DNA of 64,000 nt, from assembly GCA_963816145.1 (NCBI GenBank), contig CAWFJP010000013.1, positions 160,001 to 224,000 on the forward strand, written 5' to 3'. Shown piece after piece: positions 26,845-49,142 of this stretch. The stretch's first letter is position 1; each line of letters starts with the position of its first letter. A program made the translations under genes and the position numbers. This DNA comes from an uncultured delta proteobacterium. Its GTDB lineage: Bacteria > Desulfobacterota > Binatia > UBA9968. The notes under the pieces were generated by a model, which was not told the DNA's origin, made no database searches, and saw nothing but the letters and a program-made list of their open reading frames with translations.

Positions 26845-27402
26845 ATGACTCCGCAAGAACAATCTCTCATCACCGGTTGCATTCGCGGCGACAAAGCGGC
26901 GTGGGATGCTTTCGTGCAACAATATTCCCCTCTTGTTTATCACACGATTCGAAAGACCTTCGTCACCTATCACGCTGAATCGACCTCGGATTTGGTCGAC
27001 GACCTGTTTCAAGATTTTTTTCTCGCCATCGTTGCCGACGAGTTCAAAAAATTGCGGCAGTTCCGCGGCGATAACGGCTGCACGCTGGCAAGCTGGCTCC
27101 GGATGGTCGCCGCTCGTTTGACAATCGACGAGCTGCGAAAGCGGGTCACTTCACGTGCCGACGCACCGCTCGAATTGGCGCAACCCGATGACACAGACTG
27201 CGCGGCGATAACGGACGAACAGCTAAATGCGCTTAGCCAAGCGATCGAGTCGCTGCCGCCAAAAGACCGGCTGCTGATTCAATTTTGCTTTCGCCAAAAC
27301 CTTTCCCCGCCAGATGTTGCGAAGCTGCTAAAGACATCGGTCCCTGCAGTCTACACCCAGAAAAGCCGCATTCTCAGCAAACTCCGCGCGATACTTAAAT
27401 AA
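26845..27402 (+). CDS. ECF-type RNA polymerase sigma-70 factor
   Basis: Sigma2 (GDKAAWDAFVQQY, DDLFQD, SWLRMVA..IDELRK) and sigma4 (LPPKDR..VAKLLK..VYTQKSRI). Confidence 0.92.
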   Translation: MTPQEQSLITGCIRGDKAAWDAFVQQYSPLVYHTIRKTFVTYHAESTSDLVDDLFQDFFLAIVADEFKKLRQFRGDNGCTLASWLRMVAARLTIDELRKRVTSRADAPLELAQPDDTDCAAITDEQLNALSQAIESLPPKDRLLIQFCFRQNLSPPDVAKLLKTSVPAVYTQKSRILSKLRAILK

Positions 27403-27414
27403 GTTACCGTCTCG

Positions 27415-27443
27415 GTAAGATTTTCGCGTCTATCCGTCTATTT
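27415..27443 (+). promoter_or_regulatory. candidate ECF promoter 1
   Basis: GTAAG-N15-CGTCTATTT directly after the sigma stop; same motif recurs at 30904. Confidence 0.65.
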
Positions 27444-27652
27444 CCACAGTCGAGCTGTACAAACCTTTTGTCGGCTTTTGTGATCGTGCGTTTGTTCCAA
27501 CGCGCATGATGGAAGAGGGCAGAACAAGAAGCCTCCGATTTTTGGTGGTGAATCATGAGAGTTTAGCCTGACTCAAGACTTGGCCGCGCGCGGCTCCTGC
27601 GAATCGAAATATCGAGAATGGGCAGAGCAACGTCGGGAAAGGATGATTTAGT

Positions 27653-28276
27653 ATGAAGCGTCTTTTGATGTTGATGCTCTTGGTTGGACTGTTAGGCAGT
27701 GAGGCTTTAGCTCAGGAGTCCGCCCCGGCACCTGTGTTTAAAGACGGCGATACCTGGCGAATCAATATTTCACGGATGGGCCAGGTCAGCAGTACGACGG
27801 ATCAAAACGAAGGTATCTATGAGCTGGTTTTCACCCAAGGCAAAGTAAAGGTGTTTGCGGTGGATGGCGATCAGAAAAAGGAGTTGGAAATCCAGCCGGA
27901 CAGCACCGCGGAGACATTGTTGGGCGTAGTCGGCAAGAGTGAGCGGCGTCCGGATCTCAAATTCCCGCTCACGATGGGAAAAAAATGGGATTATCAGTTC
28001 ATCAATAAACCAGCGGGTGCTCGTCAAGAGCAGCGCAGGGCGGTTGAAGTCGCCGTTGTCGGACAGGAGCAAATAACGGTGCCGGCCGGCTCATTCAAGG
28101 TATTTAAGCTGGTCAGAACCGAACAGTGGTCTGTTGGTCGGACTGGCGTAAACACCAGCACATCGACGTTCTATTATAGCCCGGAGACCAAGAGTATCGT
28201 TAAACGCATCACCGAGAGCTCCAACAATCCGGGTATCTTGACAAATGATCTGTTGAAATTCACGCCGGGAAGCTAG
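27653..28276 (+). CDS. secreted hypothetical protein (beta-rich, TVPAG[S/T]F motif)
   Basis: Signal peptide ending ALA-Q, AAGGA RBS, APVFKDGDTW, ITVPAGSFKVFKL, YYSPE. Confidence 0.8.
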   Translation: MKRLLMLMLLVGLLGSEALAQESAPAPVFKDGDTWRINISRMGQVSSTTDQNEGIYELVFTQGKVKVFAVDGDQKKELEIQPDSTAETLLGVVGKSERRPDLKFPLTMGKKWDYQFINKPAGARQEQRRAVEVAVVGQEQITVPAGSFKVFKLVRTEQWSVGRTGVNTSTSTFYYSPETKSIVKRITESSNNPGILTNDLLKFTPGS

Positions 28277-28294
28277 AATCGAGAAAGGAAAAAA

Positions 28295-30631
28295 ATGATC
28301 TATAAACGCTGGTTACCTGGCCGACGAGTCACCAAGTTGATCGTGGCAGCGGCTCTATTAGTTTTAACCCCATACGGTTTGACCAGCGCCGCTTACGGCG
28401 CTTCGCCAATCATATCGAACGAAAGAGTTCAGCTTAGAACCCTGGCCGATGGAACCGTTGGCGTAGTTATCTCTGCTACGGTTGAGGACGCCGATGGGAT
28501 TGCCTCACTCAAGGTCGCCATCGAGCGGCCGGGCGTGTTTGGCCCTTTTCCCCTTCAGTCAGGCCTGTATCTTTCACCAGGTGACACCCCAACGCTGGAT
28601 GGCTTTAGCGTCACAATCGGTCCTGAGTTTATCCCCGCAGCACAAAGGGCGGGCAACTACCTCATAACTGTGAACGACGGCGTCACGACAGTTTCAACGA
28701 CGGTGACGCTGCCCGCCGGGCTTGTTGAACTTCCCGCGGGCGGGCCAACCGGTGTTGATACGAGCACGGGGCTACTCCGCCCTACCATCTCGATTCCTCC
28801 CATTCCTGGGGCGGCAAGCTATCGGATTTCGATCCAGAACGACTCCGATTCGACTATTCAGAGCTTCGATGGGGTGGCGGGTGCCGACCTATCGCCGGTA
28901 CCAAGCATACGGGTTGGAAGCAACATTCTCGAAGCGGGGAAATTTTACCGATTCAACATTGATGCATTTGACGCCTCGCAGGTCGCTCTGTCTGACCGCC
29001 GGAGCGAAAGCGCGGATATCTGTTACGATCCAGCCACCGGTAATACCAACATCCCCTGCATTGTTCAGAGGGACGTGCACCTTGTTACTCAAGTCGACGG
29101 CAGCGCAGTGATCCAGGCGCTTGGCGGTGTGCTGGACCGGGACGATCTGGAGTCTCTCAAGAACCCGTGCAAGTGGTTGACGGATCAAACCGGAACGAAT
29201 CTGTGCCTAACGATGCCCGCCCCTCCACCGCCTCCCTTTACCGTTACGCGTGGGGCATTCGGGCCGTTCGCGCTCACGGCGAGCCCGTTGATCACTTTGG
29301 ACCTTGATTCAGCGGTGAGAGATAATTTTACGAGCGCGCGAAACCCGCTCGATGCGACTGAAATTCCCGTGGACCAAAGGGCTGGGGATTATATTTTCAG
29401 GGCGCAAGACTCGACCGGTAACGTCGTTACCGCAACACGAGCATTCCCGGCAGGTCTAGTACCTATGCCCCCCGCCGGTCCTGTGACGATCGATACTTCA
29501 TCGGGGGTGTTCACTCCGACTGTAAGTATGCCACCCGTTCCAGGGGCGACGCATTACAGAGTGATCGTTTTCAACGACACGGATTCCTTTCGTATTAACT
29601 TCGACAACCTCCCGGGTGGCACATTATCCGAGTCACCCACGATGAAGTTGTTCGAAGGCGTCATCGAACCAAATAAGGCCTATCGAATTCACATGGACGC
29701 GTTCAACGCCGCGACCTTCCAAACAAGCACTGTACGCAGCCGCAGTGGATCTCAAGTCTATGACCCGTCCAACCTCGATGCCGACGGTGACGGCATTCAA
29801 AGCACCATCGACGGTCTGTTCGCGGGCGGGTTTGTCGATCAAAGCGCCGCTCCGTCAAGCAATTTTACAAATCAACATCTAGGGGGAACTGTTTCCGGTT
29901 CTATTATCGACCGCGCGGATTTAAAAGTCGTGGTCGTCGCTCCCACGGACCCTGCCAACGGGTTGAGACTAGGGGCCACCGGCGGCTCGGGAACCGCGAC
30001 GGTCAACGCTTGTTTGCCGACAGTCGATATAAGACTCCGGGACCGGTCGTCCGCAGCCATCGACTGCGGATCGCTCGAAGTCGACGTGCTCGAAGGGGTG
30101 GTCGAACTCCGACTGGGTAACGGCAGCGTTGTGACCGCACCCGCGGGCGCGGCATTGACGATCAACGAGCCGTCCCCTGGGCAATATTCCGTCGAAAATC
30201 TAGCGTTGAGTTTTGTTCCCGTGACGCTGACAGTTCAAGGAGTATCGATCCCGGTCAACCCCGGGACCGCTTCGGTATCGATCGTCGACGCGAAAATCGA
30301 AATCAGCCCCTTGCTGCCCAATATTATATTCCCAAAATTTAAACTACCCGTGTTTGTCGCCATTTTTTCCGGCATTGGTTTCAACGCGCCGGTAGAAGTC
30401 GATCAGTCCACTGTCACGTTCGGCAGGACTGGGTTGGAGGCCAAGTCAAAACAATGCTGGAAGTTGGACCTGAACCGAGATCGCAAGACCGATCTGCTGT
30501 GCGCTTTCGCTACTCAGGAAAGCGGCTTTCAGTCTGGCGACAAGGTTGGTCTACTCAGAGGTAAGACCTTTGCTGGCAAACTGATTCAGGGTAGTGATCG
30601 CGTTAAAATCATCTCGGGAATCAGAAAATAA
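28295..30631 (+). CDS. secreted protein with an internal duplication and Ca-binding-like motifs
   Basis: Signal peptide; PAGLV..P..GP..DTS.G...PT.S.PP.PGA..YR occurs twice; DADGDG and DLNRDRKTD loops. Confidence 0.8.
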   Translation: MIYKRWLPGRRVTKLIVAAALLVLTPYGLTSAAYGASPIISNERVQLRTLADGTVGVVISATVEDADGIASLKVAIERPGVFGPFPLQSGLYLSPGDTPTLDGFSVTIGPEFIPAAQRAGNYLITVNDGVTTVSTTVTLPAGLVELPAGGPTGVDTSTGLLRPTISIPPIPGAASYRISIQNDSDSTIQSFDGVAGADLSPVPSIRVGSNILEAGKFYRFNIDAFDASQVALSDRRSESADICYDPATGNTNIPCIVQRDVHLVTQVDGSAVIQALGGVLDRDDLESLKNPCKWLTDQTGTNLCLTMPAPPPPPFTVTRGAFGPFALTASPLITLDLDSAVRDNFTSARNPLDATEIPVDQRAGDYIFRAQDSTGNVVTATRAFPAGLVPMPPAGPVTIDTSSGVFTPTVSMPPVPGATHYRVIVFNDTDSFRINFDNLPGGTLSESPTMKLFEGVIEPNKAYRIHMDAFNAATFQTSTVRSRSGSQVYDPSNLDADGDGIQSTIDGLFAGGFVDQSAAPSSNFTNQHLGGTVSGSIIDRADLKVVVVAPTDPANGLRLGATGGSGTATVNACLPTVDIRLRDRSSAAIDCGSLEVDVLEGVVELRLGNGSVVTAPAGAALTINEPSPGQYSVENLALSFVPVTLTVQGVSIPVNPGTASVSIVDAKIEISPLLPNIIFPKFKLPVFVAIFSGIGFNAPVEVDQSTVTFGRTGLEAKSKQCWKLDLNRDRKTDLLCAFATQESGFQSGDKVGLLRGKTFAGKLIQGSDRVKIISGIRK

Positions 30632-30903: not shown

Positions 30904-30933
30904 GTAAGAAACCGCGACCACTCCCGTCTATTT
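30904..30933 (+). promoter_or_regulatory. candidate ECF promoter 2
   Basis: GTAAG-N16-CGTCTATTT upstream of the giant surface-protein gene. Confidence 0.65.
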
Positions 30934-31113
30934 TCCCAAAGCGGCGATCTCATAGGGTCGTAGTGTGTTCAGAATCCGTGCGGGATCTTCCCGGATTCTT
31001 TGCGTAGCCGAGAATCTCGTCATGGCACGGACTGTCCATTGCGGAGTGAAGACTAGAGCCAGCTGGATGTGCGAAGTGATTTCCAAATAGGTTTGGTAAT
31101 AGAGGAAAGCTCC

Positions 31114-34100
31114 ATGAACAGAAAACAAAGTCCACTTCACATGTTACAGCCAGTCTTCAGTCTGCTGCTTGTTTTGTTCGCCGCCGGCACGGCGGCAGCG
31201 CAGACGATCGAGATCGTCAAGGACTTTATCGGCTACGGCACGCGGCCGCAGGCCCCGTTGATCCTCGGCAGCGATGGTTTCTTGTATGGGACGACGTATC
31301 AAGGCGGCGCGGGCGGAAGCTCTACCGGCAACGGCACGGTTTTCAAAGTTGCCACCGATGGGAGCGGCTATCAGATCATCAAGCATTTTCGGTGCACTGT
31401 TGGGGACGATGGCTGTTTGCCGCTGGCGGGACTAGTTCAATTGAGTGACGGGTTTCTGTACGGCACGACGAGCAGCAGTGCTGTCACCGGGGGCTCCAAC
31501 CCTGCGGGGACCATCTTTAAGGTGGCACCGGATGGCAGCGGTTATCAAGTTCTAAAAGCGTTTACTATTTCTGGATCAGATGGCAAAGAGCCGCGTGCAG
31601 GATTGATTCTCGGCACCGACGGATTTCTTTACGGAACCACGTACGCAGGCGGTGTGAACGGGGGCGGGACAGTTTTTAAGATTGCCCCAAATGGCGGGAT
31701 TTTTCAGGTCATCAAGGCCTTTCAATGTGGCAACAACGCCGGGAATGCCTGTAATCCTCAAGCCACGCTGCTGCAATTGAGCGACAATTTCTTGTATGGC
31801 ACGACCAATCTCGGCGGTGCGAACGATCAGGGCACGGTCTTTCGAATCTCGATGGATGGCAGCGTATTTGAAATCTTACATTCTTTCGAGTGTGGTAATC
31901 TGCCGGCCAACGGTTGCAACCCGCAGGCCGAGTTGACGCTACATACCGGCCTTCTGTACGGCACGACCAACCTCGGTGGCGCGAATAACCAAGGTACAAT
32001 TTTTACGATTGGAACGGACGGTACCGGATTCCGGGTTATCCGGTCGCTTTCCTGTGGCAACGCGAGCGGGGGATGTAATCCGAGCGCTGGGCTAATCCGA
32101 TTGGGCAATGGATTTTTTTATGGCACGGCTTCAGCCGGCGGCGCAAACAATTCCGGTACGGTTTTCGCGATCACACCTGATGGTCTGACGTTTTCGGCGA
32201 TTAAGTCGTTTCAGGCCGGTTCCATAGTCGATAATGGTTATCAACCAAGAGCCGCTCTTGTCGCGCTAACGGACACCTTTTTGTATGGGACGACAACATT
32301 CGGAGGCGCGCATAACGAAGGTGCTGTCTTTAAGGTCGGGGCGGACGGGAGTGGCTTTACTGTGCTCTTATCGGGAGGTTGCGATCCGACGAACGGCTGC
32401 GAACCACTGGCTCCTTTATCCCAGGCCATGGATGGAAACCTCTACGGCACGACGCTTTACGGTGGCGGTGTCCTGCCGTCTGACACAGCCGGTGGAACTG
32501 TGTTCAAGATCGCGCCTGACGGTACGGGGCATACCCATCTCAGATCACTTAGCAGTATCAATCCCGCGCTTGCGCAACCTACGGGTGGTTTACTTCAGTT
32601 GAGCGATAGTTTTCTCTACGGCACGACTCGGATCGGTGGCGCAAATAACGCTGGAGCGGTCTATCGAATTTTGCCGGACGGCGCGAGTTTCCAAATCGTC
32701 AGATCATTCACGTCCGCCGAGAGTTTCGAGCCCACGGGTCGACTAGTCCTCGGTAGCAATGGATTTTTGTTCGGCGTGACGACTCGTAGTGGTTCGGTCT
32801 TTTGGGTTCGGCCGGACGGGTTAGGGGCCTCGCAATTCGTTGTGGGCTCCAGCGGCAATTCGCCCTTTAGCGGCATGAATCTAATTCGTCTAAGCGATGG
32901 TTTCTTGTATGGCACGACGACCGGAACTATTTTCAAGATCGACGAAAATCTGGCCAATTTTCAGGTCATCAAGACTTTCACCGGTGGCGTTAACGACGGC
33001 GGTCGTGCCGAGGCAGGATTGACGCTTGGCTCTGACGGTTTCCTTTATGGCGTCACGGTAACTGGCGGCGCGAATAACGGGGGCACGATCTTTAGAATCG
33101 CGCCCGACGGTAACGGATTCGAAATCATCAAGTCGCTTCAGTGCGGCGTCGCCAACAACCCATGTTCCCCTCGAGCCGAGTTGCTTCAGCTCAGCGACGG
33201 TTTCTTGTACGGCACCAGTGTAGCCGGCGGCGAGTTTGGTCGAGGGACTTTATTTAAGATCAGGCCCAACGGCTCGGATTTTAGCGTTATCGACTCTTTC
33301 GACTGCGACGGTAACGATGGCTGCGATCCCGAAGCTGGATTGATACTGGCAAGCAACGGATACGTTTACGGGACGACACGGCGCGGCGGTTTGTACGGCA
33401 AGGGTACGATCTTCCGATTTGCGCCTGATAGCACGGCGCCGGATACGACGATCAATTCTGGTCCCGCCAATCCGAGCAACAGTACAAGTGCGACGTTTAT
33501 TTTCACGGCGACGGAAGCAAATAGCACGTTTGCTTGCAGCCTCGACGGCGCGGCTTTTACTGCGTGCACGAGTCCAAAGACTTATGTCGGTCTTATCGAT
33601 GGCGCCCATAGCTTCCAGGTGCGAGCAACGGATCTGTTCGGGAACACGGACGCAACTCCTGCCGGGTTTAACTGGACCATCGACATCATCCCGCCGGAGA
33701 CTACGATCACAGTGGCGCCCGCGGCGACAACGACGAGCACGAGCGCGGGTTTCGAGTTTACCGCGACAGAACCCGCTACCTTCGCATGCAGCCTCAACGG
33801 CGCGGCGTTTTCAAACTGCGCCACGCCGCAGAATTACACCGGACTGGCCATTGGCCCGCATACCTTCCTGGTCCGCGCGATCGACGCGGCCGGCAACTTC
33901 GACACCACACCCGCGGGGCACAGTTGGACGATCAACGCGCTTGATGTAACGCCGCCGGATACGACCATTACGTCCGCCCCGCCGGCGTTAACTAACAATA
34001 CAAGTGCCACCTTCGAGTTTAGTTCGACCGAGGCAAACAGCAACTTCCGTTGCAGTCTTGATGGTGCTCCGACTTCATCCTGTACAACTCCTCACAGTTA

Positions 34101-34170
34101 CGCTGGGTTAACGAGTGGGAGTCCGATTTTTCGGTGCAAGCGACGGATGCGTTTGGTCACGTTGACCTGA
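31114..34170 (+). CDS. giant surface protein, fragment 1: signal peptide, GloVer-type tandem repeats, Ig-like repeats
   Basis: GAGGA RBS, AAA-Q signal; repeated DGFLYGTT..GG....GT(V/I)FKI; then PDTTI..FACSLDG..F.VRA.D..GN; frameshift near 34130. Confidence 0.88.
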   Translation: MNRKQSPLHMLQPVFSLLLVLFAAGTAAAQTIEIVKDFIGYGTRPQAPLILGSDGFLYGTTYQGGAGGSSTGNGTVFKVATDGSGYQIIKHFRCTVGDDGCLPLAGLVQLSDGFLYGTTSSSAVTGGSNPAGTIFKVAPDGSGYQVLKAFTISGSDGKEPRAGLILGTDGFLYGTTYAGGVNGGGTVFKIAPNGGIFQVIKAFQCGNNAGNACNPQATLLQLSDNFLYGTTNLGGANDQGTVFRISMDGSVFEILHSFECGNLPANGCNPQAELTLHTGLLYGTTNLGGANNQGTIFTIGTDGTGFRVIRSLSCGNASGGCNPSAGLIRLGNGFFYGTASAGGANNSGTVFAITPDGLTFSAIKSFQAGSIVDNGYQPRAALVALTDTFLYGTTTFGGAHNEGAVFKVGADGSGFTVLLSGGCDPTNGCEPLAPLSQAMDGNLYGTTLYGGGVLPSDTAGGTVFKIAPDGTGHTHLRSLSSINPALAQPTGGLLQLSDSFLYGTTRIGGANNAGAVYRILPDGASFQIVRSFTSAESFEPTGRLVLGSNGFLFGVTTRSGSVFWVRPDGLGASQFVVGSSGNSPFSGMNLIRLSDGFLYGTTTGTIFKIDENLANFQVIKTFTGGVNDGGRAEAGLTLGSDGFLYGVTVTGGANNGGTIFRIAPDGNGFEIIKSLQCGVANNPCSPRAELLQLSDGFLYGTSVAGGEFGRGTLFKIRPNGSDFSVIDSFDCDGNDGCDPEAGLILASNGYVYGTTRRGGLYGKGTIFRFAPDSTAPDTTINSGPANPSNSTSATFIFTATEANSTFACSLDGAAFTACTSPKTYVGLIDGAHSFQVRATDLFGNTDATPAGFNWTIDIIPPETTITVAPAATTTSTSAGFEFTATEPATFACSLNGAAFSNCATPQNYTGLAIGPHTFLVRAIDAAGNFDTTPAGHSWTINALDVTPPDTTITSAPPALTNNTSATFEFSSTEANSNFRCSLDGAPTSSCTTPHSYAGLTSGSPIFRCKRRMRLVTLT

Positions 34171-37829: not shown

Positions 37830-38870
37830 CGACGGAAACTTTTACGGCACGACGGAAGGGGGCGGGGCGAATAATCTCGGCACGATCTTTCGAATGGACG
37901 GGAACGGTAACGTGACGGTGTCGCACTCGTTTACGGGCAGCGGCGCAAGCGGTACTGGGAGTGATCCCTTTGCCGGTTTGCTGCAAAGTAACGACGGTAA
38001 CTTATACGGCACGACGAGCAGCGGCGGCGCGAATGACTTCGGCACGATTTTCCGCATGGACGGGAACGGCAACGTGACGGTCCTGCATTCCTTTACGGGC
38101 AGTGGCGCAAGCGGTACAGGGCGTGTCCCTGAGGCCAGTTTAATTCAGGGCAGCGATGGCAACTTCTACGGTACGGCAGCCCTCGGCGGCGCGAATGACT
38201 TCGGCACGATTTTCCGCATGGACGGGAACGGCAACGTGATGGTCCTGGCATTCCTTTTCGGGCAGCGGCGCAAGCGGTACAGGGAGTGTCCCTGAGGCCA
38301 GTTTAATTCAGGGCAGCGACGGCAACTTCTACGGCACGACGAGCAGCGGCGGCGCGAATGACTTCGGCACGATTTTCCGCATGGACGGCAGCGGTAATGT
38401 AACGGTGCTGCACTCGTTTTCGGGCAGCGGCGCGACTGCAACCGGGATGGGTCCCGTTGCCAGTTTGCTCCAAGGAAACGACGGTAACTTCTACGGCACG
38501 ACGAGCGGCGGTGGTGCGAATGCCTTCGGCACGATCTTTCGTATGGACGGTAGCGGGAATGTGACAGTGCTGCATTCGTTTACGGGCAGCGGGTCAAGTG
38601 GCACGGGAGGAGGAACTTCTGCAGGCTTGATCCAGGGCAGCGACAGTAACTTTTACGGCACGGCAAGACTCGGCGGTGCGAATAACTTAGGCACGATTTT
38701 CCGCATGGAGGGTAGCGGGAACGTAACTGTGCGGCACTCGTTTATCGGCAGCGGGACAAGCGGCGTCGGCTGGTATCCCCGAGCCAGCTTAATCCAGGGC
38801 AGTGACGGTAACCTCTATGGGACAGTGCAAGCTGGCGGGGCCAATAACTATGGAACGATCTTCCGTGTAA
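37750..38870 (+). repeat. about seven 162-bp (54-aa) GloVer-type repeats
   Basis: FRM(D/E)G anchors at 37891, 38053, 38215, 38378, 38540 and 38702; one interval is 163 nt (indel). Confidence 0.85.
37894..38295 (+). CDS. giant surface protein, fragment 3: GloVer-type repeats
   Basis: DGNLYGTTSSGGANDFGTIFRM repeats between two +1 frameshifts. Confidence 0.7.
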   Translation: MDGNGNVTVSHSFTGSGASGTGSDPFAGLLQSNDGNLYGTTSSGGANDFGTIFRMDGNGNVTVLHSFTGSGASGTGRVPEASLIQGSDGNFYGTAALGGANDFGTIFRMDGNGNVMVLAFLFGQRRKRYRECP

Positions 38871-41047: not shown

Positions 41048-41086
41048 CGAAAGGCCGGCGGCGATTAAGTCTCTGCCGGCCTTTCG
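41048..41086 (+). terminator. GC-rich hairpin after the giant gene, possible terminator
   Basis: CGAAAGGCCGGC..GCCGGCCTTTCG 12-bp stem; no immediate T-run. Confidence 0.45.
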
Positions 41087-41138
41087 ATTATTGGGGGCTT
41101 TTTTGAGTCATATGATTGTGTTAGGGAGGGAATAATCC

Positions 41139-41834
41139 ATGGCTGCAGACGAACAAGAGATCGCAGAGATTTTGCGCCGACTATCGAACCGGTCACAGAC
41201 GACGACTGATCGGCAGGATTGTCCCGATGAGGAATCCCTGGCGCTGTTCCTGGCGGGAAATTTGCCGGAAAGTCGGCGTAGCGAGGTGGAGGCCCATCTG
41301 GCGCGCTGTGCATTTTGTCTCGATGACGTGGTCGCCGCATACCAGTCCGGCGAGCTGACTGCCGGCGAAAATGTGCCGCGTCGACTCATGGCCCGGGCGA
41401 TGGCGCTGATTCCGGGAAGGGAAGCTATTCTCGATCTCGCGGTGCGCTTGGTCAAAGATTCCATCGAGCTTGTGAGCACGTCGGCCCGGCTCGTAACGGC
41501 GCCGAGCCCCGTAGTTCGAGGTGAACCTGCGCCGGAGGTTGGGAACTCGCTTCAAGTCGAGCAGGCAGTCGGCCGGTTCAGGGTCGCCGTCGAGCTCGAC
41601 TTGAGCGACGCGGGCCTGTGCCAAGTCATCGCCAACGTTACCGAGGAGTCGGGAACGCCCGCCGAGGGGGTGCGTCTGAGCTTGAGTTCGGGGGAGCGCG
41701 AACAGGCTTCCTTTTTGACCCGCGCTGGTGTAGTGGTCTTTGACCGGATATCGCCCGGTGAATATAGCATCGCTGTTTCCGAGTCCGGCAGCGTCGTAGG
41801 AAGGATCAGATTGAACTTGATGTTGGAAAGATAA
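41139..41834 (+). CDS. zf-HC2 (ZAS) anti-sigma factor, soluble, with a C-terminal beta-sandwich domain
   Basis: CPDEESLALF..G.L..VEAHLARCAFC (HxxxCxxC); GGGAGG RBS; no TM helix. Confidence 0.85.
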   Translation: MAADEQEIAEILRRLSNRSQTTTDRQDCPDEESLALFLAGNLPESRRSEVEAHLARCAFCLDDVVAAYQSGELTAGENVPRRLMARAMALIPGREAILDLAVRLVKDSIELVSTSARLVTAPSPVVRGEPAPEVGNSLQVEQAVGRFRVAVELDLSDAGLCQVIANVTEESGTPAEGVRLSLSSGEREQASFLTRAGVVVFDRISPGEYSIAVSESGSVVGRIRLNLMLER

Positions 41835-41879: not shown

Positions 41880-43739
41880 ATGATGGACGAAGCGCTCACT
41901 CTCGATTGCGCCCGCGAGCAGCAGAGACTGAAGGTCAGCTGCTCGGACGGCCCTGAAAAGGCCCTCCGCCCCTATGAAATACATGAGGTGGATTGGCAAC
42001 AGGCCGAGCGCAGTTGCCGGGAAATCCTGAACCTCCTTCAGCGCGCCAACGGCAGCGCTAAAATCAACGCCGAGATCGTCAATAACCTCAAGAAATCCGG
42101 CCACCTCCTTTTCGATCTGCTCGTCCCGCCGCAAGCCAAGGTGAAACTCGCCGACGCCAGCGCGACGGTTCTCACGCTCCGTTTGGACGACAGCTTGGTT
42201 CACCTACCCTGGGAATTGCTCCACGACGGGCGGGAGTTTTTTTGCCGGCGCTTCGCGATGGGCCGGATCGCCAGCACCCGCCAGACACCGACCGCGCGGG
42301 CGGTGCGAGCGCCGCGAGCGCCCTTCAAAGTCCTGATCATCGCCGATCCCCGCGGCGATCTCGAAGCTTGTTATCGCGAAGGAATGGCCATCAAGGCTTT
42401 TCTCGATTGCAAACGCGATATTTTTCACGTCGACTTCAAAAGCTGTCCAGCCGACATCGCCTTCGTGAAAAAAAATCTGCGCGACTACGACCTCGTTCAC
42501 TATGCCGGGCATGCGACCTATGACGCGCTGGACCCCTCGGAAGGCGGTTGGCTCTTGAGCGACGGCACCCTCAAGGCCGGCGACATCGCCGCGATGGGCG
42601 GGCACCAGCCCATGCCCGCCTTGGTGTTCTCGAACGCCTGCCAGAGCGGGCAGACGGACGGTTGGATGGTTGGCGATCAAGAGCAACGGGTATTTGGCCT
42701 CGCCAATGCCTTTCTGCTCGCCGGCGTGCAACATTACATCGGCACCTTCTGGGAAACCGTCGACGAGCCCAGCGCTCATTTTGCCAGGCGATTCTACTCC
42801 GCGATTGCGGGCGGAAAGAGCATCGGCTCATCCCTCCGTGACGCCCGACAAGCGCCCCTCGGCAGCGGTGAAACTGAAAGCCTCGCCTGGGCCAACTACA
42901 TGTTATACGGCGATCCGGTTCGCAGGTTTGATGCCGGTGACGAGACTTCGGAAGGGACGTTCCCGGAGCGAAATTTCGGACCGTGGACGCTGGCCGCAAA
43001 GGCGCGGCGCGCGCCGTTGTTTCCAACGGCAATAGGCGCGTTGCTGCTTACCGGAGTCTACCTGGCGTATTCCGAGTACTATTCGCCACCATCGGCCGCG
43101 ATCTCGAACCTCGCGGCACGATCCGATGGGCAATCGGCGATGAACGCGTCGATGGTCGATCCGGCTCCAGCAGCCGCGCCGCTCAGTCTCAACGTCAACA
43201 TCATCGGTCAAAGAAAAGAACCCGATGGCAGCTACACCGAAGTGATCGTGCGGGAAGGCAGCGTGCTTCAATCCCGTGATCATTTCCAGGTGCACGTGGA
43301 GACCAATAAATCCTCGCATGTGTACGTGCTGCTGTTCGACAGTCAAGGCCAGGCGACACAGCTCTTTCCCGATCCCAAGATCGATCATTCGGGTTTTCTC
43401 GACGGTCGACGGAAGATCGCCGTTCCGGACAAGGAATTGTGGTTTTGGCTGGATGAGAATCCCGGCACAGAGACGGTCTATGTGCTCGCTTCCGAAGAGC
43501 CGATGTCGGATATCCGCGGGCTGCTGAGCAAAATGGACAAGGCGGGCAACGCCGAACGCAAGCGTCTCTCGGGTCAGATCAGACAGCAGATCCAGATCGT
43601 CGAACGCGGAGTCGGCGGAGTCGCTAAGGGGAAAACCGTGAGCTATCCGCTGAGCGACGGCAAGCTCGTGCAAAAAGTAACCGACGTGGTCGCCGGTTCG
43701 GGCGCCGTGGTGCGAGCGATTAGTTTCGAGCATAGATAA
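41880..43739 (+). CDS. CHAT-domain protease with a TM helix and C-terminal DUF4384-like domain
   Basis: LPWELL, VLIIADP, HYAGH (His), NACQSG (Cys), WANYMLYGDP; TM AIGALLLTGVYLAY; HVYVLLFDSQG..QLFP..LDENPGTETVYVLAS. Confidence 0.9.
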   Translation: MMDEALTLDCAREQQRLKVSCSDGPEKALRPYEIHEVDWQQAERSCREILNLLQRANGSAKINAEIVNNLKKSGHLLFDLLVPPQAKVKLADASATVLTLRLDDSLVHLPWELLHDGREFFCRRFAMGRIASTRQTPTARAVRAPRAPFKVLIIADPRGDLEACYREGMAIKAFLDCKRDIFHVDFKSCPADIAFVKKNLRDYDLVHYAGHATYDALDPSEGGWLLSDGTLKAGDIAAMGGHQPMPALVFSNACQSGQTDGWMVGDQEQRVFGLANAFLLAGVQHYIGTFWETVDEPSAHFARRFYSAIAGGKSIGSSLRDARQAPLGSGETESLAWANYMLYGDPVRRFDAGDETSEGTFPERNFGPWTLAAKARRAPLFPTAIGALLLTGVYLAYSEYYSPPSAAISNLAARSDGQSAMNASMVDPAPAAAPLSLNVNIIGQRKEPDGSYTEVIVREGSVLQSRDHFQVHVETNKSSHVYVLLFDSQGQATQLFPDPKIDHSGFLDGRRKIAVPDKELWFWLDENPGTETVYVLASEEPMSDIRGLLSKMDKAGNAERKRLSGQIRQQIQIVERGVGGVAKGKTVSYPLSDGKLVQKVTDVVAGSGAVVRAISFEHR

Positions 43740-43769
43740 AGTTCGGCACATCCTTACCTCCGATTGAAA

Positions 43770-46244
43770 ATGAAACTCTTGTTGGCTTGCGCCATTTGGC
43801 TCTTAATCTTTCAGCCGCGAGCCGCCGATGCGCAGCCTCTTAACCCCAGCGGATGGAGTCAAGCCGATGTTTTGCGGGCAGTCGCCCGGGGCGAAGGAGC
43901 TAAGGTCCTAGCGCTTTATGAAACCCAAGCGGTCCAATTCGAGAACTCGGCCGAAGCTAGCGAGTCCCCTGGAAAGTATTGGAGATCAGCAGCCAACGCT
44001 TATCGACTCGCATCGCTTACCGCGAGATATCTTGGCAAGTTTGAAAAGGGAATTATTTATGCGGAGAAAATGCTTGCGCTGACTGAGAAGCCTGAGATCA
44101 CTCGTTTGAAATCGCTTGCCATCAACACCTTGTTGACGGCTCATCAAAGCACCAATAATTTTGCAAAGGCTTCGGAACTTCTTGAATTTGGATTCAGGGT
44201 TGCGAAGGAAATGCCCCCCGACTCACTAGATCGAATTTGGTGGGAGAGTAGCCTGTATCATATCCAAGGAACCCTCTTCAGACGACAAGGGAACTACGAG
44301 AGCGCGGCTGTCGCCTATCGCTATGCGATCAAGTCGAGAGAAGAGTATCTAACAAAGTTTACTGGCGATGGCCCACAAGCGAGAGACCGTGTGGAAGTTG
44401 CCCGGACCCTCATGCTGAACAGTTATTTTGGTCTTGGGGGTGCCTATATCGCCACGGGGAAGCCGGAACTTGCGTTAGAGAGCTACCAGCGCGGCCTAGC
44501 GGCTGCGGAGGAATGGGCGTTGGACTACCCTAAGGTCAACTTACTCATTGGTGTGGGTAAGGTGCTTTTCGATCGACACGACTTTGCCGGCGCATTGGAT
44601 AGTTTGCATAAAGCTCTCGACTTGGCCCGCCTTCAGCAAACGCCGGAACGCGTCAGTAACGCGGCGCGAGGTATCGGCGATGTTTTGCGAGAGACTGGTA
44701 AGCCGACGGAGGCCGTGAGTTTCTACCGGGAAGCGATCGAGCAAGTTGAATCGGTTCGCGCATTGATGGCGTCCCAGAGTAACCGGCAGTCCTACTTCGG
44801 TGGCTCGCTTCAAGCCTATTGGGGGATGATTGCGTCACAGTGGGAAACCGGGGCACATGCTCGGGCGTTTGACTACGGCGAGAGAGCGCGTTCGCGGAGC
44901 TTTCTAGATCTGCTCGGTTCGAAAGTGCGGCTGGTCAATAGGAAAAGCGGCTTAAGCGAGGAAGAGGTTGCTTTAGCCGAAATTAGGATTATAGGCCCGA
45001 TAAATTTATCGGCTGAGGCGACGAGGGAGTATCCATCTCCAAGCGAGGATGGGGGCAATCTTGAGGAACGCTATCGGGTGATTCTGGACAAGATACGTAC
45101 GACAAATTCCGAGCAGGCGACTTTGATGTCGGTGGAGCCACTCAAGTTGAACGAGGTGCAGAGGTTCCTCGATCCTGAGCAAACTCTGATCGAGTATCTG
45201 GTGACGCCCCAGAAGACTTATCTGTGGGTAGTGGATAGACAGCATGTTCGTGCGCATGAAATTCCGATATCTCGCAACGAGCTTGTCACTAAAGTCCAAG
45301 TTTTGAGGACCGCGATTTCTGATCTCAGGCCGTTGAAAGAATACCAAGCCATATCTCGCGGCTTTTACGATCTTTTCGTCGCACCGGTAAAGCCGTTCAT
45401 CCGAGGCAAAGAAATTATAATCGTTCCTCATGATGTGCTGCACTATGTGCCGTTCCAGGCGTTGTTTTCCTCCGACGGCAAGTACCTCATTGAAGATCAT
45501 CCTGTGACCTATGTTTCCAGTGCCAGCCTGATTCAATTTACCAAAGCGAAAAGAAAGCCCGTCGGACAGAAAGTATTAGCTTTCGGAAATCCCAGCTTTG
45601 ATTCTGCGAAGGTCAATCTTCCGATGTCTGAGTTGGAAACCGATGCAATCCGCCGTCTCTATCCTCAATCGGTCGCATTTGTGAAAGGAGAAGCCAGCGA
45701 AGAAAAGGTCAAAGCGTTATCTCAAGATTATGAGGTTATCCACTTTGCGGCTCACGCCGAACTGAGTAAGGAAGATCCATTATCGTCCGCCGTTCTGTTA
45801 GCCAGAGGCGGCAAGGAAGATGGACGACTCGAAGTAAGGGAGATCTTCGGTATGGATCTCAAAGCCAGTTTGGTAGTTCTGAGCGGCTGTGAGACCGGAT
45901 TGGGTGAGCTATCCAGCGGCGACGAATTGGTCGGACTGACCCGGGCGTTCATTTACGCGGGCACGCCGTCGGTGGTGGCGAGTCTATGGAAAGTCGACGA
46001 TGCCTCGACGGCGCATTTGATGAGCGGCTTTTATCGGAACTTAAAAACCAAGTCCAAAGTTGAGTCGTTAAGGCAGGCACAGTTGGACATGATCCGCGGC
46101 AGGGTGAACACGCAGTTGCTGGCCCAGCGCGGAGTGGGCGGGGTAACGAAGCTCGGGACTCCGGCTGTGCGGACATCGACTACGATTCTCGCTGCACACC
46201 CATACTTTTGGGCGCCGTTCATTCTGGTGGGCGATGGGAAGTAA
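43770..46244 (+). CDS. exported TPR-CHAT (caspase-like) protease 1
   Basis: Signal peptide ending ADA-Q, TPR-like helices, ERARSRSFLDLL, HFAAH, LSGCETG, SLWKVDD, HPYFWAPF; alternative TTG start at 43764. Confidence 0.92.
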   Translation: MKLLLACAIWLLIFQPRAADAQPLNPSGWSQADVLRAVARGEGAKVLALYETQAVQFENSAEASESPGKYWRSAANAYRLASLTARYLGKFEKGIIYAEKMLALTEKPEITRLKSLAINTLLTAHQSTNNFAKASELLEFGFRVAKEMPPDSLDRIWWESSLYHIQGTLFRRQGNYESAAVAYRYAIKSREEYLTKFTGDGPQARDRVEVARTLMLNSYFGLGGAYIATGKPELALESYQRGLAAAEEWALDYPKVNLLIGVGKVLFDRHDFAGALDSLHKALDLARLQQTPERVSNAARGIGDVLRETGKPTEAVSFYREAIEQVESVRALMASQSNRQSYFGGSLQAYWGMIASQWETGAHARAFDYGERARSRSFLDLLGSKVRLVNRKSGLSEEEVALAEIRIIGPINLSAEATREYPSPSEDGGNLEERYRVILDKIRTTNSEQATLMSVEPLKLNEVQRFLDPEQTLIEYLVTPQKTYLWVVDRQHVRAHEIPISRNELVTKVQVLRTAISDLRPLKEYQAISRGFYDLFVAPVKPFIRGKEIIIVPHDVLHYVPFQALFSSDGKYLIEDHPVTYVSSASLIQFTKAKRKPVGQKVLAFGNPSFDSAKVNLPMSELETDAIRRLYPQSVAFVKGEASEEKVKALSQDYEVIHFAAHAELSKEDPLSSAVLLARGGKEDGRLEVREIFGMDLKASLVVLSGCETGLGELSSGDELVGLTRAFIYAGTPSVVASLWKVDDASTAHLMSGFYRNLKTKSKVESLRQAQLDMIRGRVNTQLLAQRGVGGVTKLGTPAVRTSTTILAAHPYFWAPFILVGDGK

Positions 46245-48672
46245 ATTATCTGCAACCGCAGCTTTATTATTTTTATTTCTAATAGCAATACCGGCGAATT
46301 GTCAGCAAACTGAGTTCGACACAAGCTTGATTGGCGTTTACCGAGCTGTGTCCCAGGGCGAAAGCAAGAAGGCGTTAATATATTACGAGACACAAGCTAG
46401 CCGGTACGAGGTTCTCGGAAAATCGAGCGAATCCCCCGAGGGTTACCGGCGCGCGGCGGCGCAAGCCTATCGAGAGGCGTCGAACGCGGCGCGGCATCTT
46501 GGCGATCTTCAAAAAGCCATTGACTACGGAGCGCGGGCGCTAAAGCTCGCCGAAGGGATCGATAATGCTAACCTGAAATTGGCGGCCATTAGCAGTTTGG
46601 AGCAAGCTCATCGAAGCACTAGAGATTTTGCCAAGGCAGCAGAATTCATAAGCTACGGATTAGAGCTCGCACGACAGTTCCCCGACAATTCGCTCAATCG
46701 GCTTTGGTGGGATGGGGTATTTTTCGTCAAAAGAGCTCAAGAACATAATCGGCAAAGAAGATACCAGAAGGCGATCGAGGACTTTCAAGACGCCATCACC
46801 TTCAAGCAAGACTATCTGAGCAGAGTCGCCGAACGGGTTAAGAATATAGATGACCGCCGAGAACACGCGCAAATCTCTTTAACACTCGCCTATCGAGCAC
46901 TCGGAGACGCATATAGCTCGATGGGAAATCCGGATCGAGCGCTGGCGAGTTATCAAATCGGCATCGAAGCGGCCGAGAAATGGGCATTGGAACTTCCCCA
47001 GACCGGATTGTATCTCGGCGTGGGTAATATTCTCCACGGCCGTATGGAATACGCCGCGGCACTGGACAGCTTCCACAACGCTCTGCGCTTCGCGCAGCAG
47101 CAGCGCTGGCCGGCGCTCATTAGCATTGCCGCACGGCGCATCGGTGACATTTTGCGGGAGATGGGCCGAGGGACCGAGGCTGTAGCTTTCTACCGAGAAG
47201 CCGTCGCGCAAATCGAGTCAATGCGCTCGTTGCTTGCGTCCGAGCAAAACCGACAGTCCTATTTTGGTGGCTGGCTCGGCGCTTATCAGGGCATGATCGG
47301 AGCGTTATGGAATACGGGGGACTACGGCCAGGCATTTGACTACAGCGAGAGGATTCGTTCGCGGACCTTCTTGGATATTTTAGGATCGAAGCCACGATTC
47401 TCCGGCGTGGCAACTTCTTCGACGGAGGAATCCTTTAGCGTGGCTGACGCCGTATTTTTTGACGGTCGCCAGGAAGTTGCGGGAGGACTGTCTCAAACCG
47501 TAGCCCGCAAGATTCGCAAAACCGACACCGAGCAGGCGTCATTGTTATCCGAGACGCCTCTTACTCTGCAACAGGTGCAAACATTGTTGGAGCCCGGGCA
47601 GGCGCTGCTCGAATATCTGGTGACGCCCGAAAAGATTTACCTATGGGTAGTCGATAAGCAGCAAGTTCGCGCGCACGAAGTACGGTTAACTCGGAAGGAG
47701 ATTGTCGTTAAAGTTCAAGCCTTGCGAACGGCGATCTCTGATCTCAGGCAGTTAGAAGAATTCCAAGCGATTGCTCGCGATCTACACGATACTTTAGTTG
47801 CACCGATAAGGCCGCTCATACGGGGTAAAGAAATTATCATCGTGCCGCACGACGTGCTGCACTATATGCCGTTTCAAGCGTTGTATTCGCCGCAGGGGAA
47901 ATATTTGGTCGAAGATCATTCTATCTCGTATCTTTCCAGCGCCAGCCTGCTTCGATTCACCAAAGCCAAAAGAAGGCCCGTTGGCGAGAAAGTATTAGCT
48001 TTCGGTAATCCGAGCTTTGATGTTGCGAAGGTTAGTCTTCCGATGTCGGAACTGGAAACAGATGAGATTGGCCGACTCTTTTCCCGGGCTACCGTGCTGG
48101 TGAAATCAGAAGCCACCGAAGAAAAGGTGAAAGCGTTATCTCAAAATTATGACGTTCTTCACTTCGCCACCCACGCCGAGCTAAGCAAAGCAAACCCACT
48201 GTCATCCGCCGTTTTCTTCGCGAAGACTACCAACGAAGATGGACGGCTCGAAGTCAGGGAAATATTCGGCATGGATCTCAAAGCAAGTCTGGTGGTTTTG
48301 AGCGGGTGTGAGACCGGTTTGGGCGAGCTGTCCAGCGGAGACGAATTGGTCGGGCTAACCAGGGCATTCATTTACGCGGGCACACCGTCTGTCGTTGCCA
48401 GCCTTTGGAAAGTGGACGACGCGTCGACGGCACATTTGATGGGCAGTTTTTACCGGAATCTAAAAACCAAGACTAAAGTCGAATCGTTGCGCCAAGCACA
48501 GTTGGCAATGATCCGCGGCAAGGTGAACACGAACCTGCTCGCCCAGCGCGGCGTCGGCGGCGTTGGCAAACTCGGACAGGCACCGGCTCGCGCTTCTCTA
48601 TCTCAAAACTCTATCTCAACTTCTCACCCCTACTTCTGGGCGCCGTTTATCTTGGTCGGGGACGGGAAGTGA
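46234..48672 (+). CDS. exported TPR-CHAT (caspase-like) protease 2
   Basis: Hydrophobic N-terminal signal, TPR-like helices, HFATH, LSGCETG, HPYFWAPF; overlaps the upstream gene by 11 nt. Confidence 0.92.
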   Translation: MGSKLSATAALLFLFLIAIPANCQQTEFDTSLIGVYRAVSQGESKKALIYYETQASRYEVLGKSSESPEGYRRAAAQAYREASNAARHLGDLQKAIDYGARALKLAEGIDNANLKLAAISSLEQAHRSTRDFAKAAEFISYGLELARQFPDNSLNRLWWDGVFFVKRAQEHNRQRRYQKAIEDFQDAITFKQDYLSRVAERVKNIDDRREHAQISLTLAYRALGDAYSSMGNPDRALASYQIGIEAAEKWALELPQTGLYLGVGNILHGRMEYAAALDSFHNALRFAQQQRWPALISIAARRIGDILREMGRGTEAVAFYREAVAQIESMRSLLASEQNRQSYFGGWLGAYQGMIGALWNTGDYGQAFDYSERIRSRTFLDILGSKPRFSGVATSSTEESFSVADAVFFDGRQEVAGGLSQTVARKIRKTDTEQASLLSETPLTLQQVQTLLEPGQALLEYLVTPEKIYLWVVDKQQVRAHEVRLTRKEIVVKVQALRTAISDLRQLEEFQAIARDLHDTLVAPIRPLIRGKEIIIVPHDVLHYMPFQALYSPQGKYLVEDHSISYLSSASLLRFTKAKRRPVGEKVLAFGNPSFDVAKVSLPMSELETDEIGRLFSRATVLVKSEATEEKVKALSQNYDVLHFATHAELSKANPLSSAVFFAKTTNEDGRLEVREIFGMDLKASLVVLSGCETGLGELSSGDELVGLTRAFIYAGTPSVVASLWKVDDASTAHLMGSFYRNLKTKTKVESLRQAQLAMIRGKVNTNLLAQRGVGGVGKLGQAPARASLSQNSISTSHPYFWAPFILVGDGK

Positions 48673-48677
48673 GGATA

Positions 48678-48705
48678 GGCAAGAGGCATGAGGCAATAGG
48701 CAACA
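48678..48705. repeat. heptamer tandem repeat
   Basis: GGCAAGA GGCATGA GGCAATA GGCAACA directly after the TPR-CHAT 2 stop. Confidence 0.6.
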
Positions 48706-48944
48706 GTCGGAGGCTTGAAAGACCCGGGCGAAACTTACGTACGGTAACAATTCGTGTACGTAAAAATACGAGTGGCAACGTTAAAAAGACAACCCTAATA
48801 CCTTGTTGCACGCACCAACTCGTTAGACGGTTTGGGGTTGGGGAAGCAGTGGTGGAGAGGTTGCCGTTCACCGCCCAGCATTTGGCGAGGCAATGACGGA
48901 GTTGAAAAACTCCGGGCGGGGTGCGCGCCGATTTTACATAGCAA

Positions 48945-49142
48945 TTCCCTGCAATGACGTGGCTAAGGAGCAAGGCGACTAAGGACAAAGTCAAAGCGTT
49001 GGTGCGCGACTACGACATTCAGCACTTTTCCGCCCGGGCGGAGACGAAACAAGATGCCCCGTGATCGTCAGCTGTTCTGTGGGCAAAAACCGGATCCGAC
49101 GACGGTCGTCTGGAAGCGCGCAACGTTTTCGGTGCCGGACTC
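48945..49142 (+). pseudogene. remnant of a further CHAT-domain gene
   Basis: KATKDKVKALVRDYDIQHFSARAETKQDAP*SSAVLWAKTGSDDGRLEARNVFG aligns with the neighbouring CHAT cores; TGA at 49062. Confidence 0.8.

Follow-up and report, generated by a model that had tools for sequence, protein, structure and literature searches.

A widespread sigma factor, soluble anti-sigma and CHAT protease module with a candidate caspase-like relay across the cell envelope

The genes described here lie on the plus strand of a 64-kb stretch of DNA, in the following referred to as the window, which corresponds to contig C13:160001-224000 of a 7.8-Mb genome in 31 contigs; all coordinates are positions in the window. They encode a sigma factor of the extracytoplasmic function (ECF) type, a soluble zinc-binding anti-sigma protein (ZAS), a single-pass inner-membrane protein with a caspase-like CHAT protease domain and two exported TPR-CHAT proteases, and together they represent a widespread and uncharacterised module of what is probably protease-controlled anti-sigma signalling. 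A first-pass annotation, made from the letters of the sequence, had listed these components, and Pfam, NCBIfam and hydropathy analyses located every one of them on this strand where it had been placed. The sigma factor (185 aa, 26845-27402) carries Sigma70_r2 and Sigma70_r4_2 and reaches 81.9 bits with TIGR02937 (cut-off 42.9), which assigns it to the ECF (group 4) branch of the sigma-70 family. Further downstream, the ZAS gene (41139-41834) encodes a CHCC-type protein (zf-HC2, 26.1 bits; cut-off 22.2) and precedes the gene of the membrane protein (41880-43739), in which a cytoplasmic CHAT domain (PF12770, 128.5 bits; cut-off 24) is followed by a single transmembrane (TM) segment at residues 378-396 and by a periplasmic DUF4384 domain with a C-terminal tail (PF14326, 50.6 bits; cut-off 27; the sole DUF4384 match in the genome). 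The genes for TPR-CHAT 1 (43764-46244) and TPR-CHAT 2 (46234-48672) come next, both with a signal-like N-terminus and with CHAT domains of 248.1 and 262.3 bits, respectively. As had been claimed, all three full CHAT domains keep the His/Cys dyad (H211/C254 in the membrane protein, H664/C709 and H647/C693 in the TPR-CHATs), and the topology, for which signal-like and TM-like segments were assigned by hydropathy, is that of a TM-less anti-sigma, a single-pass CHAT protein and exported TPR-CHATs. The series ends with a decayed TPR-CHAT remnant (48951-49188, plus strand; 50% identity to residues 619-686 of TPR-CHAT 2, E 1.7e-17), which has an in-frame stop, an arginine at the position of the catalytic histidine and a deletion of the Cys region. 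The stretch between the sigma factor and ZAS genes holds two promoter-like motifs and three genes for secreted or surface proteins.

A search of 401 genomes from the same phylum grouping with the CHAT-TM-DUF4384 protein revealed that its cytoplasmic CHAT domain belongs to a distinct clade (38-58% identity). The genes for sigma factor, ZAS and CHAT protein were found adjacent, in this order and on one strand, at loci L001, L032, L033, L035, L036, L037, L038 and L045. To avoid the circularity of neighbourhoods that are found through CHAT itself, the 401 genomes were independently searched with a ZAS profile, which gave 17 full-length matches, 13 of them with a CHAT-clade gene immediately downstream. 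At the other four, a CHAT gene lay about 3 kb away on the opposite strand (one locus), the contig ended (one), or there was no CHAT gene (two); at one of these last two, genes for giant beta-helix/MopE secreted proteins come next. A metagenome scan with an alignment of the CHAT domain returned 559 relatives, from the best 80 loci of which the following counts were taken. A ZAS gene was present directly 5' of the CHAT gene at 61 of the 68 loci with at least 700 nt of sequence on that side, and a sigma factor gene lay no more than 400 nt 5' of ZAS at 45 of 51. Merging loci with CHAT proteins at least 90% identical left 60 clusters and changed these counts to 45/51 and 35/41. The six ZAS loci that lack an adjacent sigma factor are the closest relatives of the window, and other genes precede ZAS where the upstream sequence suffices. 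Because the stop codon of ZAS and the start codon of CHAT frequently overlap, the gene order suggests that the two partners are co-translated. The breadth of the survey is one phylum sample and one metagenome scan; a further scan of genome contigs with the single protein gave one locus only, L001, in a Candidatus Binatia metagenome-assembled genome (MAG), the nearest named public relative. The prediction that the core genes would co-occur elsewhere was therefore borne out, including that for the TPR-CHATs, which is described below.

The accessory genes around this triad differ between loci. In addition to the CHAT-TM-DUF4384 form of the window, we observed cyclase-CHAT-TM-TPR-CsgG/LpoB-like, kinase-cyclase-CHAT-TM-CsgG-like, TIR-CHAT and CHAT-AAA architectures, and the cytoplasmic side of the CHAT proteins can hence bear cyclase, kinase or TIR domains. 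The cyclase-type loci (L033, L035, L036, L037, L038, L045 and L050) encode a FadL/TodX-like outer-membrane protein in seven of seven cases and, likewise in seven of seven, a protein of about 690 aa with immunoglobulin (Ig)-like and CsgG-LpoB-like parts beside the triad, in most cases with TPR. By gene content, the same core seems here to have another accessory set that spans the envelope. The cyclase-type triad usually adjoins recJ and pgi. As the accessory sets differ, the triad is best described as a core that plugs into different envelope-sensing sets. The first-pass annotation had counted the TPR-CHATs among the core; their coupling to DUF4384 stood, while the other triad subtypes use cyclase, kinase or TIR and TPR/CsgG-like modules instead, and by gene order the TPR-CHATs are an accessory of the DUF4384 subtype only.

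Relatives in which CHAT is fused with TIR_2 (L052), class III cyclase domains or a kinase together with a cyclase might also be read as signs of a conflict or defence system, in which a periplasmic sensor detects a protein of an invader or competitor, CHAT serves as a death or alarm effector with the TIR or cyclase domains, and sigma factor and ZAS only tune expression. DdvA/DdvS, craspase, CalpL/T/S and SAVED-CHAT/PCaspase are all defence-linked protease-sigma systems. We consider this quite improbable, as no cas, CBASS or other known defence genes were found in the window and PADLOC has no model for the core proteins. Moreover, the flanks are of a housekeeping kind, with RecD2 in the window, RecJ and PGI at the cyclase-type loci and TilS and FtsH at L001, and the regulon is locally made up of secreted or surface proteins. 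The absence of cas genes and of an array had already been claimed, and agrees with a Pfam analysis of 35 flanking open reading frames (ORFs), a tandem-array search, in which no CRISPR-like arrays appeared in the window, and PADLOC, which gave generic TPR matches only.

The ZAS of the window combines an N-terminal anti-sigma domain, with the H-x3-C-x2-C zinc motif of class I ZAS proteins, with a C-terminal domain that has a weak CarboxypepD_reg-like match (19.6 bits, below cut-off). Residues C28, H53, C57 and C60 are invariant in 17 ZAS sequences and present in 66-69 of 69. Its highest 19-residue hydropathy is 1.25, so that no TM-like segment is recognised, and none was present in the first 10 orthologues examined. 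In an AlphaFold2 (AF2) model, the N-terminal domain is helical (residues 31-70, pLDDT 88-91) and the C-terminal domain is a beta-sandwich (residues 137-227, pLDDT 93-96); between these two confident domains, the linker at residues 110-135 is disordered (pLDDT below 50). Foldseek assigned the beta-sandwich to generic Ig/FN3/macroglobulin-like folds only, and sequence searches of the PDB gave nothing informative for ZAS, the CHAT-TM protein or the sigma factor. From its family, the CHCC zinc domain would be expected to hold the sigma factor, and the pairing of the two proteins is supported by the adjacency of their genes at 45 of the 51 loci. Domains of the ZAS family can be sensitive to oxidants. 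The ZAS profile gave 366 matches at E <= 1e-30 in a set of 1.84 billion cluster representatives, including long multi-repeat beta-sandwich proteins; the best 150 of these matches comprise 136 proteins of 190-283 aa, most of whose length is matched, and 14 of the long multi-repeat type. A search for longer proteins in which ZAS is fused yielded none, which is weak evidence, as long proteins crowd the list of candidates. A metagenome scan with an alignment of three ZAS sequences matched 601 stretches with no relative among them. In an Atlas look-up, which provides a lead only, similar zf-HC2 clusters of 232 aa were commonest in Candidatus Omnitrophota and also occurred in Armatimonadota.

Structural modeling supports a binding of ZAS to the membrane protein. 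A complex model of CHAT (residues 1-375) and ZAS, calculated with a 17-row alignment per partner, scored 0.79, compared to 0.00 for the best of three controls; of 157 solved complexes, 116 reach the mark applied, compared to 2 of 215 mismatched pairs, counts that hold only roughly for the present model because it was calculated with custom alignments. Three runs agreed in at least 97% of the contacts, with a pLDDT of the partner of at least 71. In the predicted interface, residues 159-198 of CHAT (strand 183-190) face residues 177-217 of ZAS (strand 187-193), and it takes in R179, E188, A190 and S191, the most conserved residues of ZAS outside the zinc site. Thus, the C-terminal beta-sandwich of ZAS is predicted to dock on the cytoplasmic CHAT domain. 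Just before the beta-sandwich, the linker contains a [VIA]-R-[GS] motif, the arginine of which is R127 in the window (codon 41517-41519); 63 of 69 distinct ZAS sequences have an Arg in this column, and in the remaining six it falls in the next one. Since separases, which are relatives of CHAT proteases, cut after Arg (as cited in PMC11506125), R127 is, on the basis of its conservation, a reasonable P1 candidate for cleavage. The dyad of the cytoplasmic CHAT domain, H211/C254, is invariant in 17 of 17 CHAT sequences, and 16 of the 17 proteins have a TM-like segment after the domain.

These data also bear on the idea that the CHAT-TM protein is mainly a tether or scaffold for ZAS, in which case the sigma factor would be freed by a conformational change, by zinc/redox sensitivity of the CHCC site or by general proteases, and the CHAT activity would serve autoprocessing or act on the sigma factor or other substrates. 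The predicted docking places ZAS at an exosite and not at the active site, a response of ZAS domains to oxidants is discussed for DdvA in PMC11506125, and a more distant relative, L043, has lost the catalytic Cys. On the other hand, the dyad is otherwise invariant, and a near-invariant Arg lies in a disordered linker beside a protease whose separase relatives cut after Arg, and we therefore regard a mere scaffolding role as unlikely.

On the outer side of the membrane, the TPR-CHATs follow the DUF4384 form of the CHAT protein closely. A TPR-CHAT gene is located directly 3' of the CHAT gene at 24 of 25 evaluable DUF4384-type loci and at 0 of 30 loci of other types (19/20 and 0/27 after dereplication). 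The catalytic His and Cys are conserved in 29 of 29 aligned TPR-CHAT sequences, and 22 of 24 full-length proteins begin with a hydrophobic signal- or lipobox-like N-terminus, many with a lipobox-like Cys; the two without a signal-like start are a mis-called start and an ORF truncated by the contig end. Both partners share a pentapeptide, RG[VI]GG. Of the distinct DUF4384-type proteins, 26 of 27 carry it some 43 residues before the C-terminal end of the periplasmic tail, and of the distinct TPR-CHATs, 21 of 22 carry it some 40 residues before the C-terminus. It was absent from 35 CHATs of other types, 59 ZAS proteins and 45 sigma factors (0/35, 0/59 and 0/45), and the other ORFs of these loci, 161,167 residues in total, contained it a single time. 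In the window it reads RGVGG, at residues 576-580 of the DUF4384 tail (43605-43619) and at residues 789-793 of TPR-CHAT 1 and 772-776 of TPR-CHAT 2. The tail of the DUF4384-type protein also matches that of the TPR-CHAT by BLASTP (E 1e-4). It might thus be speculated that RG[VI]GG is a common recognition, cleavage or pseudosubstrate element. A Foldseek search with a TPR-CHAT model identified the family only (Csx29, separase and DdvA, with low TM-scores; DdvA, 8rw5, at rank 42).

At L032 (8370-10100; genome G291, same family), a lipoprotein-like protein of 576 aa with its own DUF4384 (83.6 bits) is encoded between the promoter copies and ZAS, and further downstream a second DUF4384 tail fragment is followed by another TPR-CHAT; the DUF4384/TPR-CHAT unit seems to duplicate as a pair. 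In several loci, small genes were observed directly after the last TPR-CHAT, namely DUF433 in the window (49143-49478, plus strand), the ORF of which overlaps the end of the CHAT remnant, and DUF5615/PIN-like genes at L055 (7747-8154) and L085 (11617-11970); a DUF433 and DUF5615-PIN pairing is toxin-antitoxin-like by family name. A second, unrelated CHAT locus of the same genome, L136 (G000:C4:30000-40000), encodes a CHASE2-cyclase (849-2963), a frame-split TPR-CHAT (3269-5047/4977-5669), a DUF928 protein (5739-6446, minus strand) and a transporter of the ShlB/FhaC type of two-partner secretion (6768-8486, minus strand).

The strict coupling of TPR-CHAT and DUF4384 would also fit a regulated intramembrane proteolysis that has been re-targeted, with the TPR-CHAT as site-1 protease on the DUF4384 protein and an RseP-type site-2 protease that cuts the TM segment, upon which the released complex of CHAT, ZAS and sigma factor would be degraded or would self-activate. 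The CHAT protein is single-pass and has a bulky periplasmic part, M50 (RseP-family) peptidases are encoded elsewhere in the genome, and the same two-step logic has been proposed for DdvA (PMC11506125). Still, we consider this route rather unlikely: no M50 or DegS-like gene occurs in any locus examined, and it leaves unexplained both the invariant dyad of the cytoplasmic CHAT (17/17) and the triads that have no DUF4384 or TPR-CHAT. It had been suggested at the outset that the relay replaces site-1/site-2 proteolysis. This holds for the anti-sigma, which has no TM helix and so cannot be a site-2 substrate; as the genome encodes M50 peptidases, an RseP-type cleavage of the CHAT-TM protein may still occur, and to that extent the suggestion is weakened.

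The two promoter-like motifs of the window are GTAAGA-N14-CGTCTA (P1, 27415-27440), 13 nt past the stop codon of the sigma factor gene and 5' of the first secreted-protein gene, and GTAAGA-N15-CGTCTA (P2, 30904-30930), 5' of a giant gene, both on the plus strand. The strict GTAAGA/CGTCTA pattern has four matches on both strands of the 7.8-Mb genome, and two of the four are P1 and P2, in agreement with the twin promoters that had been noted in the first-pass annotation. The remaining two, upstream of a CN_hydrolase gene (C18) and within an enoyl-CoA hydratase gene (C11), look like chance matches. With up to one mismatch, the motif occurs between sigma factor stop and ZAS start at 25 of 48 metagenome loci, and its density is 27 matches in 7.3 kb inside this interval versus 16 in 623 kb outside. 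It is kept in L001, L032 and 22 metagenome loci, and in many loci the stop codon of the sigma factor gene is the TAA within GTAAGA. L001 has three motif copies, and duplicated fragments of the sigma factor 3' end precede copies two and three at least; L032 has two copies. At both loci the copies precede genes for small proteins with signal-like N-termini. The region 5900-7800 of L001 shows that the sigma factor 3' end was duplicated together with the motif at least twice, and the first sigma factor copy there is apparently frame-shifted near its end.

Given the concentration of the motif in the interval that separates the sigma factor gene from ZAS, the likely conserved target of the promoter is the ZAS-CHAT(-TPR-CHAT) operon itself. 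The secreted or surface cargo, by the same comparison of loci, appears as a variable, lineage-specific insert behind promoter copies. Genes for secreted proteins are located behind such copies in the window, L001, L032, L054/55 and L079, and comprise beta-helix/NosD-like proteins, a DUF4384 lipoprotein and proteins of no family; in the window they are p207, p778 and the giant repeat gene. The small secreted protein p207 (27653-28276, plus strand) has a hydrophobic signal-like N-terminus and no family above cut-off, and no homologue was found in L001 or L032 (phmmer, 1e-4). The secreted or anchored protein p778 (28295-30631, plus strand) has a hydrophobic N-terminal segment at residues 12-33 and no Pfam or NCBIfam match. 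The claim that the sigma factor expresses the surface proteins is consistent with the position of the motifs before the cargo of the window; as a description of the conserved regulon it has to be revised in favour of the ZAS-CHAT operon, since the cargo varies.

The giant gene (31069-40939, plus strand; likely ATG 31114) encodes a surface protein with GloVer, Ig-like (Big_13, OmpL47-type) and YWTD repeats. A protein of about 3,270 aa had been described here; the gene is present, and in the assembly it reads as four ORFs (31069-34170, 34134-37829, 37894-38295 and 38381-40939), separated by single-base frame changes near 34125, 37763 and 38243, two of which fall within a 162-bp tandem array. A product of about 3,270 codons would demand read-through of all three frame changes. 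Four sequencing runs gave short fragments over 33900-38500, which had no indels and did not extend over the frame changes near 34125 and 37763; the best-matching DNA run contained 0.27 of the sampled words, and a look for RNA runs gave none. Other genes of the window are also split into two overlapping or adjacent ORFs, an arylmalonate-decarboxylase (Amdase)-like gene (25959-26667, minus strand) and an NMT1/THI5-like gene (53634-54550, minus strand), and, on contig C4, a further TPR-CHAT gene is likewise split by a frame change. Because ordinary genes elsewhere in the assembly are split as well, single-base indel errors may be common in it and are a plausible cause.

The proximity of the TPR-CHATs to large surface-protein genes in the window might indicate that they are unrelated to signalling and act as secreted proteases that mature or shed these neighbours. 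We regard this as highly improbable because the TPR-CHAT tracks the DUF4384-type CHAT and not the cargo: most of the 24 of 25 loci with this coupling have no cargo, the sigma factor gene being located directly before ZAS. In addition, the cargo is not conserved, and RG[VI]GG is common to the TPR-CHATs and the DUF4384 tail.

Taken together, gene content, topology by hydropathy, conservation, co-occurrence, motifs and the predicted docking interface are observations that fit a caspase-like relay in two compartments, a reading towards which we lean on balance. The module would consist of the ECF sigma factor, the soluble ZAS, the single-pass inner-membrane CHAT/DUF4384 protein and one or more exported TPR-CHATs. 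A periplasmic cue would let the TPR-CHAT act on the periplasmic tail of the DUF4384 protein, probably at the common RG[VI]GG, and this action would activate the cytoplasmic CHAT domain. The activated CHAT might then cut the docked ZAS in its disordered linker, probably after R127, which would part the sigma-binding domain from its membrane tether and expose it to degradation. The freed sigma factor would transcribe from the GTAAGA-N15-CGTCTA promoters; with the ZAS-CHAT-TPR-CHAT operon as target this would provide feedback and replenishment, and in this genome and its close relatives promoter copies may have captured variable genes for secreted or surface proteins, which would be transcribed as local cargo. 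We infer each cleavage step, the direction of signalling and the cue. A relay of this kind had been proposed in the first-pass annotation, and it gains from the co-occurrence, topology, predicted docking, linker Arg, RG[VI]GG coupling and promoter conservation reported here, while cleavage, the order of events and the cue stand as they were proposed.

Several points weigh against this reading. ZAS is predicted to dock at an exosite, on an edge strand, with R127 not placed at the active site by the model, and the docking score comes from one predictor run on shallow, unpaired alignments. The conserved Arg of the linker, and similarly the conserved RG[VI]GG, could each be a structural or binding element instead of a cleavage site, and in the AF2 model of the TPR-CHAT the confidence is low for residues 663-826, the catalytic half. 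Directly 5' of ZAS or of the sigma factor gene, the window has no motif (up to three mismatches), and for ZAS to be expressed transcription would have to pass a hairpin at about 41050-41090. It may also be that the giant cargo gene is broken. Finally, 7 of 68 CHAT loci are without an upstream ZAS and 2 of 17 ZAS loci are without a CHAT gene, so the coupling of the two is not absolute.

In a wider and more tentative form, which we consider possible, if doubtful, the same relay would be widespread. An exported TPR-CHAT would cut, or be checked by, an RG[VI]GG element common to itself and to the receptor tail, and CHAT would then cleave the docked ZAS after the conserved Arg and free the ECF sigma factor. 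In addition to regulated intramembrane proteolysis and partner switching, there would then be a third general way to activate ECF sigma factors, and a modular one, with either DUF4384/TPR-CHAT or a FadL-like outer-membrane protein and CsgG-like sensors, and with cyclase, kinase or TIR co-outputs, and its logic might be ancestral to the Csx29-Csx30-sigma branch of craspase. If the proposed relay holds, a membrane-anchored caspase-like protease would carry an anti-sigma as docked substrate, another caspase-like protease would lie on the outer side of the membrane, and events outside the cell could apparently switch genes on by protein cutting. With at least 559 relatives of the cytoplasmic CHAT in one metagenome scan, the module is not a one-off. 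The analysis yields candidate cleavage motifs, a defined promoter and a defined predicted docking interface, and there is interest in CHAT proteases as tools whose substrates can be programmed.

Elsewhere in the window, a second ECF sigma factor (61085-61711, plus strand) is followed by two ORFs of no family (61722-62285 and 62346-62711), which may be its anti-sigma pair. On the minus strand at 11478-20291, a protein of 1,441 aa without informative family, with a 267-bp tandem repeat at 18082-18782, is encoded beside a KaiC-like ATPase and ClpB. A radical-SAM gene followed by cofD, cofC and cofE-like genes of coenzyme F420 biosynthesis is located at 55938-59544 (plus strand).

In the full-text literature searched, which is mostly that outside subscription journals, no description was found of a cytoplasmic CHAT-TM protein that pairs with a soluble ZAS, or of the four-gene DUF4384/TPR-CHAT module, and a prior description may exist. 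Through the module, three systems of recent discovery, namely DdvA, craspase and the CRISPR-associated protease-sigma pairs, are connected with signalling in an ordinary chromosomal setting. The nearest system is DdvA-DdvS of Myxococcus xanthus, which, as described in PMC11506125, similarly has an ECF sigma factor held by an N-terminal CHCC zinc anti-sigma domain and a periplasmic TPR-CHAT with a His-Cys dyad, with caspase-like proteolysis proposed as the trigger. There, however, ZAS, TM segment and TPR-CHAT form one polypeptide, which is thought to need RseP (PMC11506125), whereas no such fusion exists in the window, where ZAS is soluble, the TPR-CHATs are exported as proteins of their own and both are bridged by a TM protein that has a second CHAT in the cytoplasm. 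PMC11506125 reports DdvA-like fusions only from Myxococcota and one Comamonas, and describes DdvA as controlling a CBASS/CRISPR defence island; no defence genes were found in the window.

In craspase, the TPR-CHAT Csx29 cuts Csx30 and thereby frees an RpoE-like sigma factor (CASP-sigma), and some Csx30 proteins carry a C-terminal DUF4384 domain (bioRxiv 10.1101/2022.08.17.504292). In both systems, a CHAT protease is proposed to cut within the flexible linker of a soluble protein that binds the sigma factor, and it is Csx29 that the TPR-CHATs of the window match best, by sequence as well as by fold. The TPR-CHATs score 58.5 and 60.4 bits with the NCBIfam Csx29 model, compared to a cut-off of 300, and are thus not Csx29 equivalogs; Cas7-11/gRAMP and an array, which mark type III-E craspase, are likewise lacking from the window. 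Craspase is cytoplasmic and guided by RNA through Cas7-11, with Csx30/Csx31 as anti-sigma partner, whereas the TPR-CHATs described here are exported, without cas genes or an array, and the partner is ZAS. CalpL-CalpT-CalpS and SAVED-CHAT/PCaspase (PCc-sigma) of type III-B CRISPR also use a signal-activated protease that cleaves a soluble anti-sigma-like partner, and a caspase-like protease that acts on a second protein in a cascade; they differ in being cytoplasmic and triggered by cyclic oligoadenylate, in having no membrane or periplasmic part and in using other protease families (Lon-SAVED) or partners.

The ECF54 group of Actinobacteria (Huang et al. 2015, as summarised in the PMC7826278 supplement and in PMC8999054) resembles the module in a carboxypeptidase-regulatory-like protein at position +1, CHAT/TPR proteins nearby and a proposed proteolytic control. 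It is described there without an anti-sigma, with a subtilase, from Actinobacteria only and with the promoter GTATCAG/CTCC, whereas the +1 protein of the window is a clear ZAS, the promoter is GTAAGA/CGTCTA and the locus has no subtilase; the two are set apart by gene set and promoter. Finally, regulated intramembrane proteolysis of the RseA/RsiW type similarly leads from an envelope cue to sigma factor release by sequential proteolysis, the proteases of that route being DegS/PrsW and RseP and those of the window caspase-like cysteine proteases.

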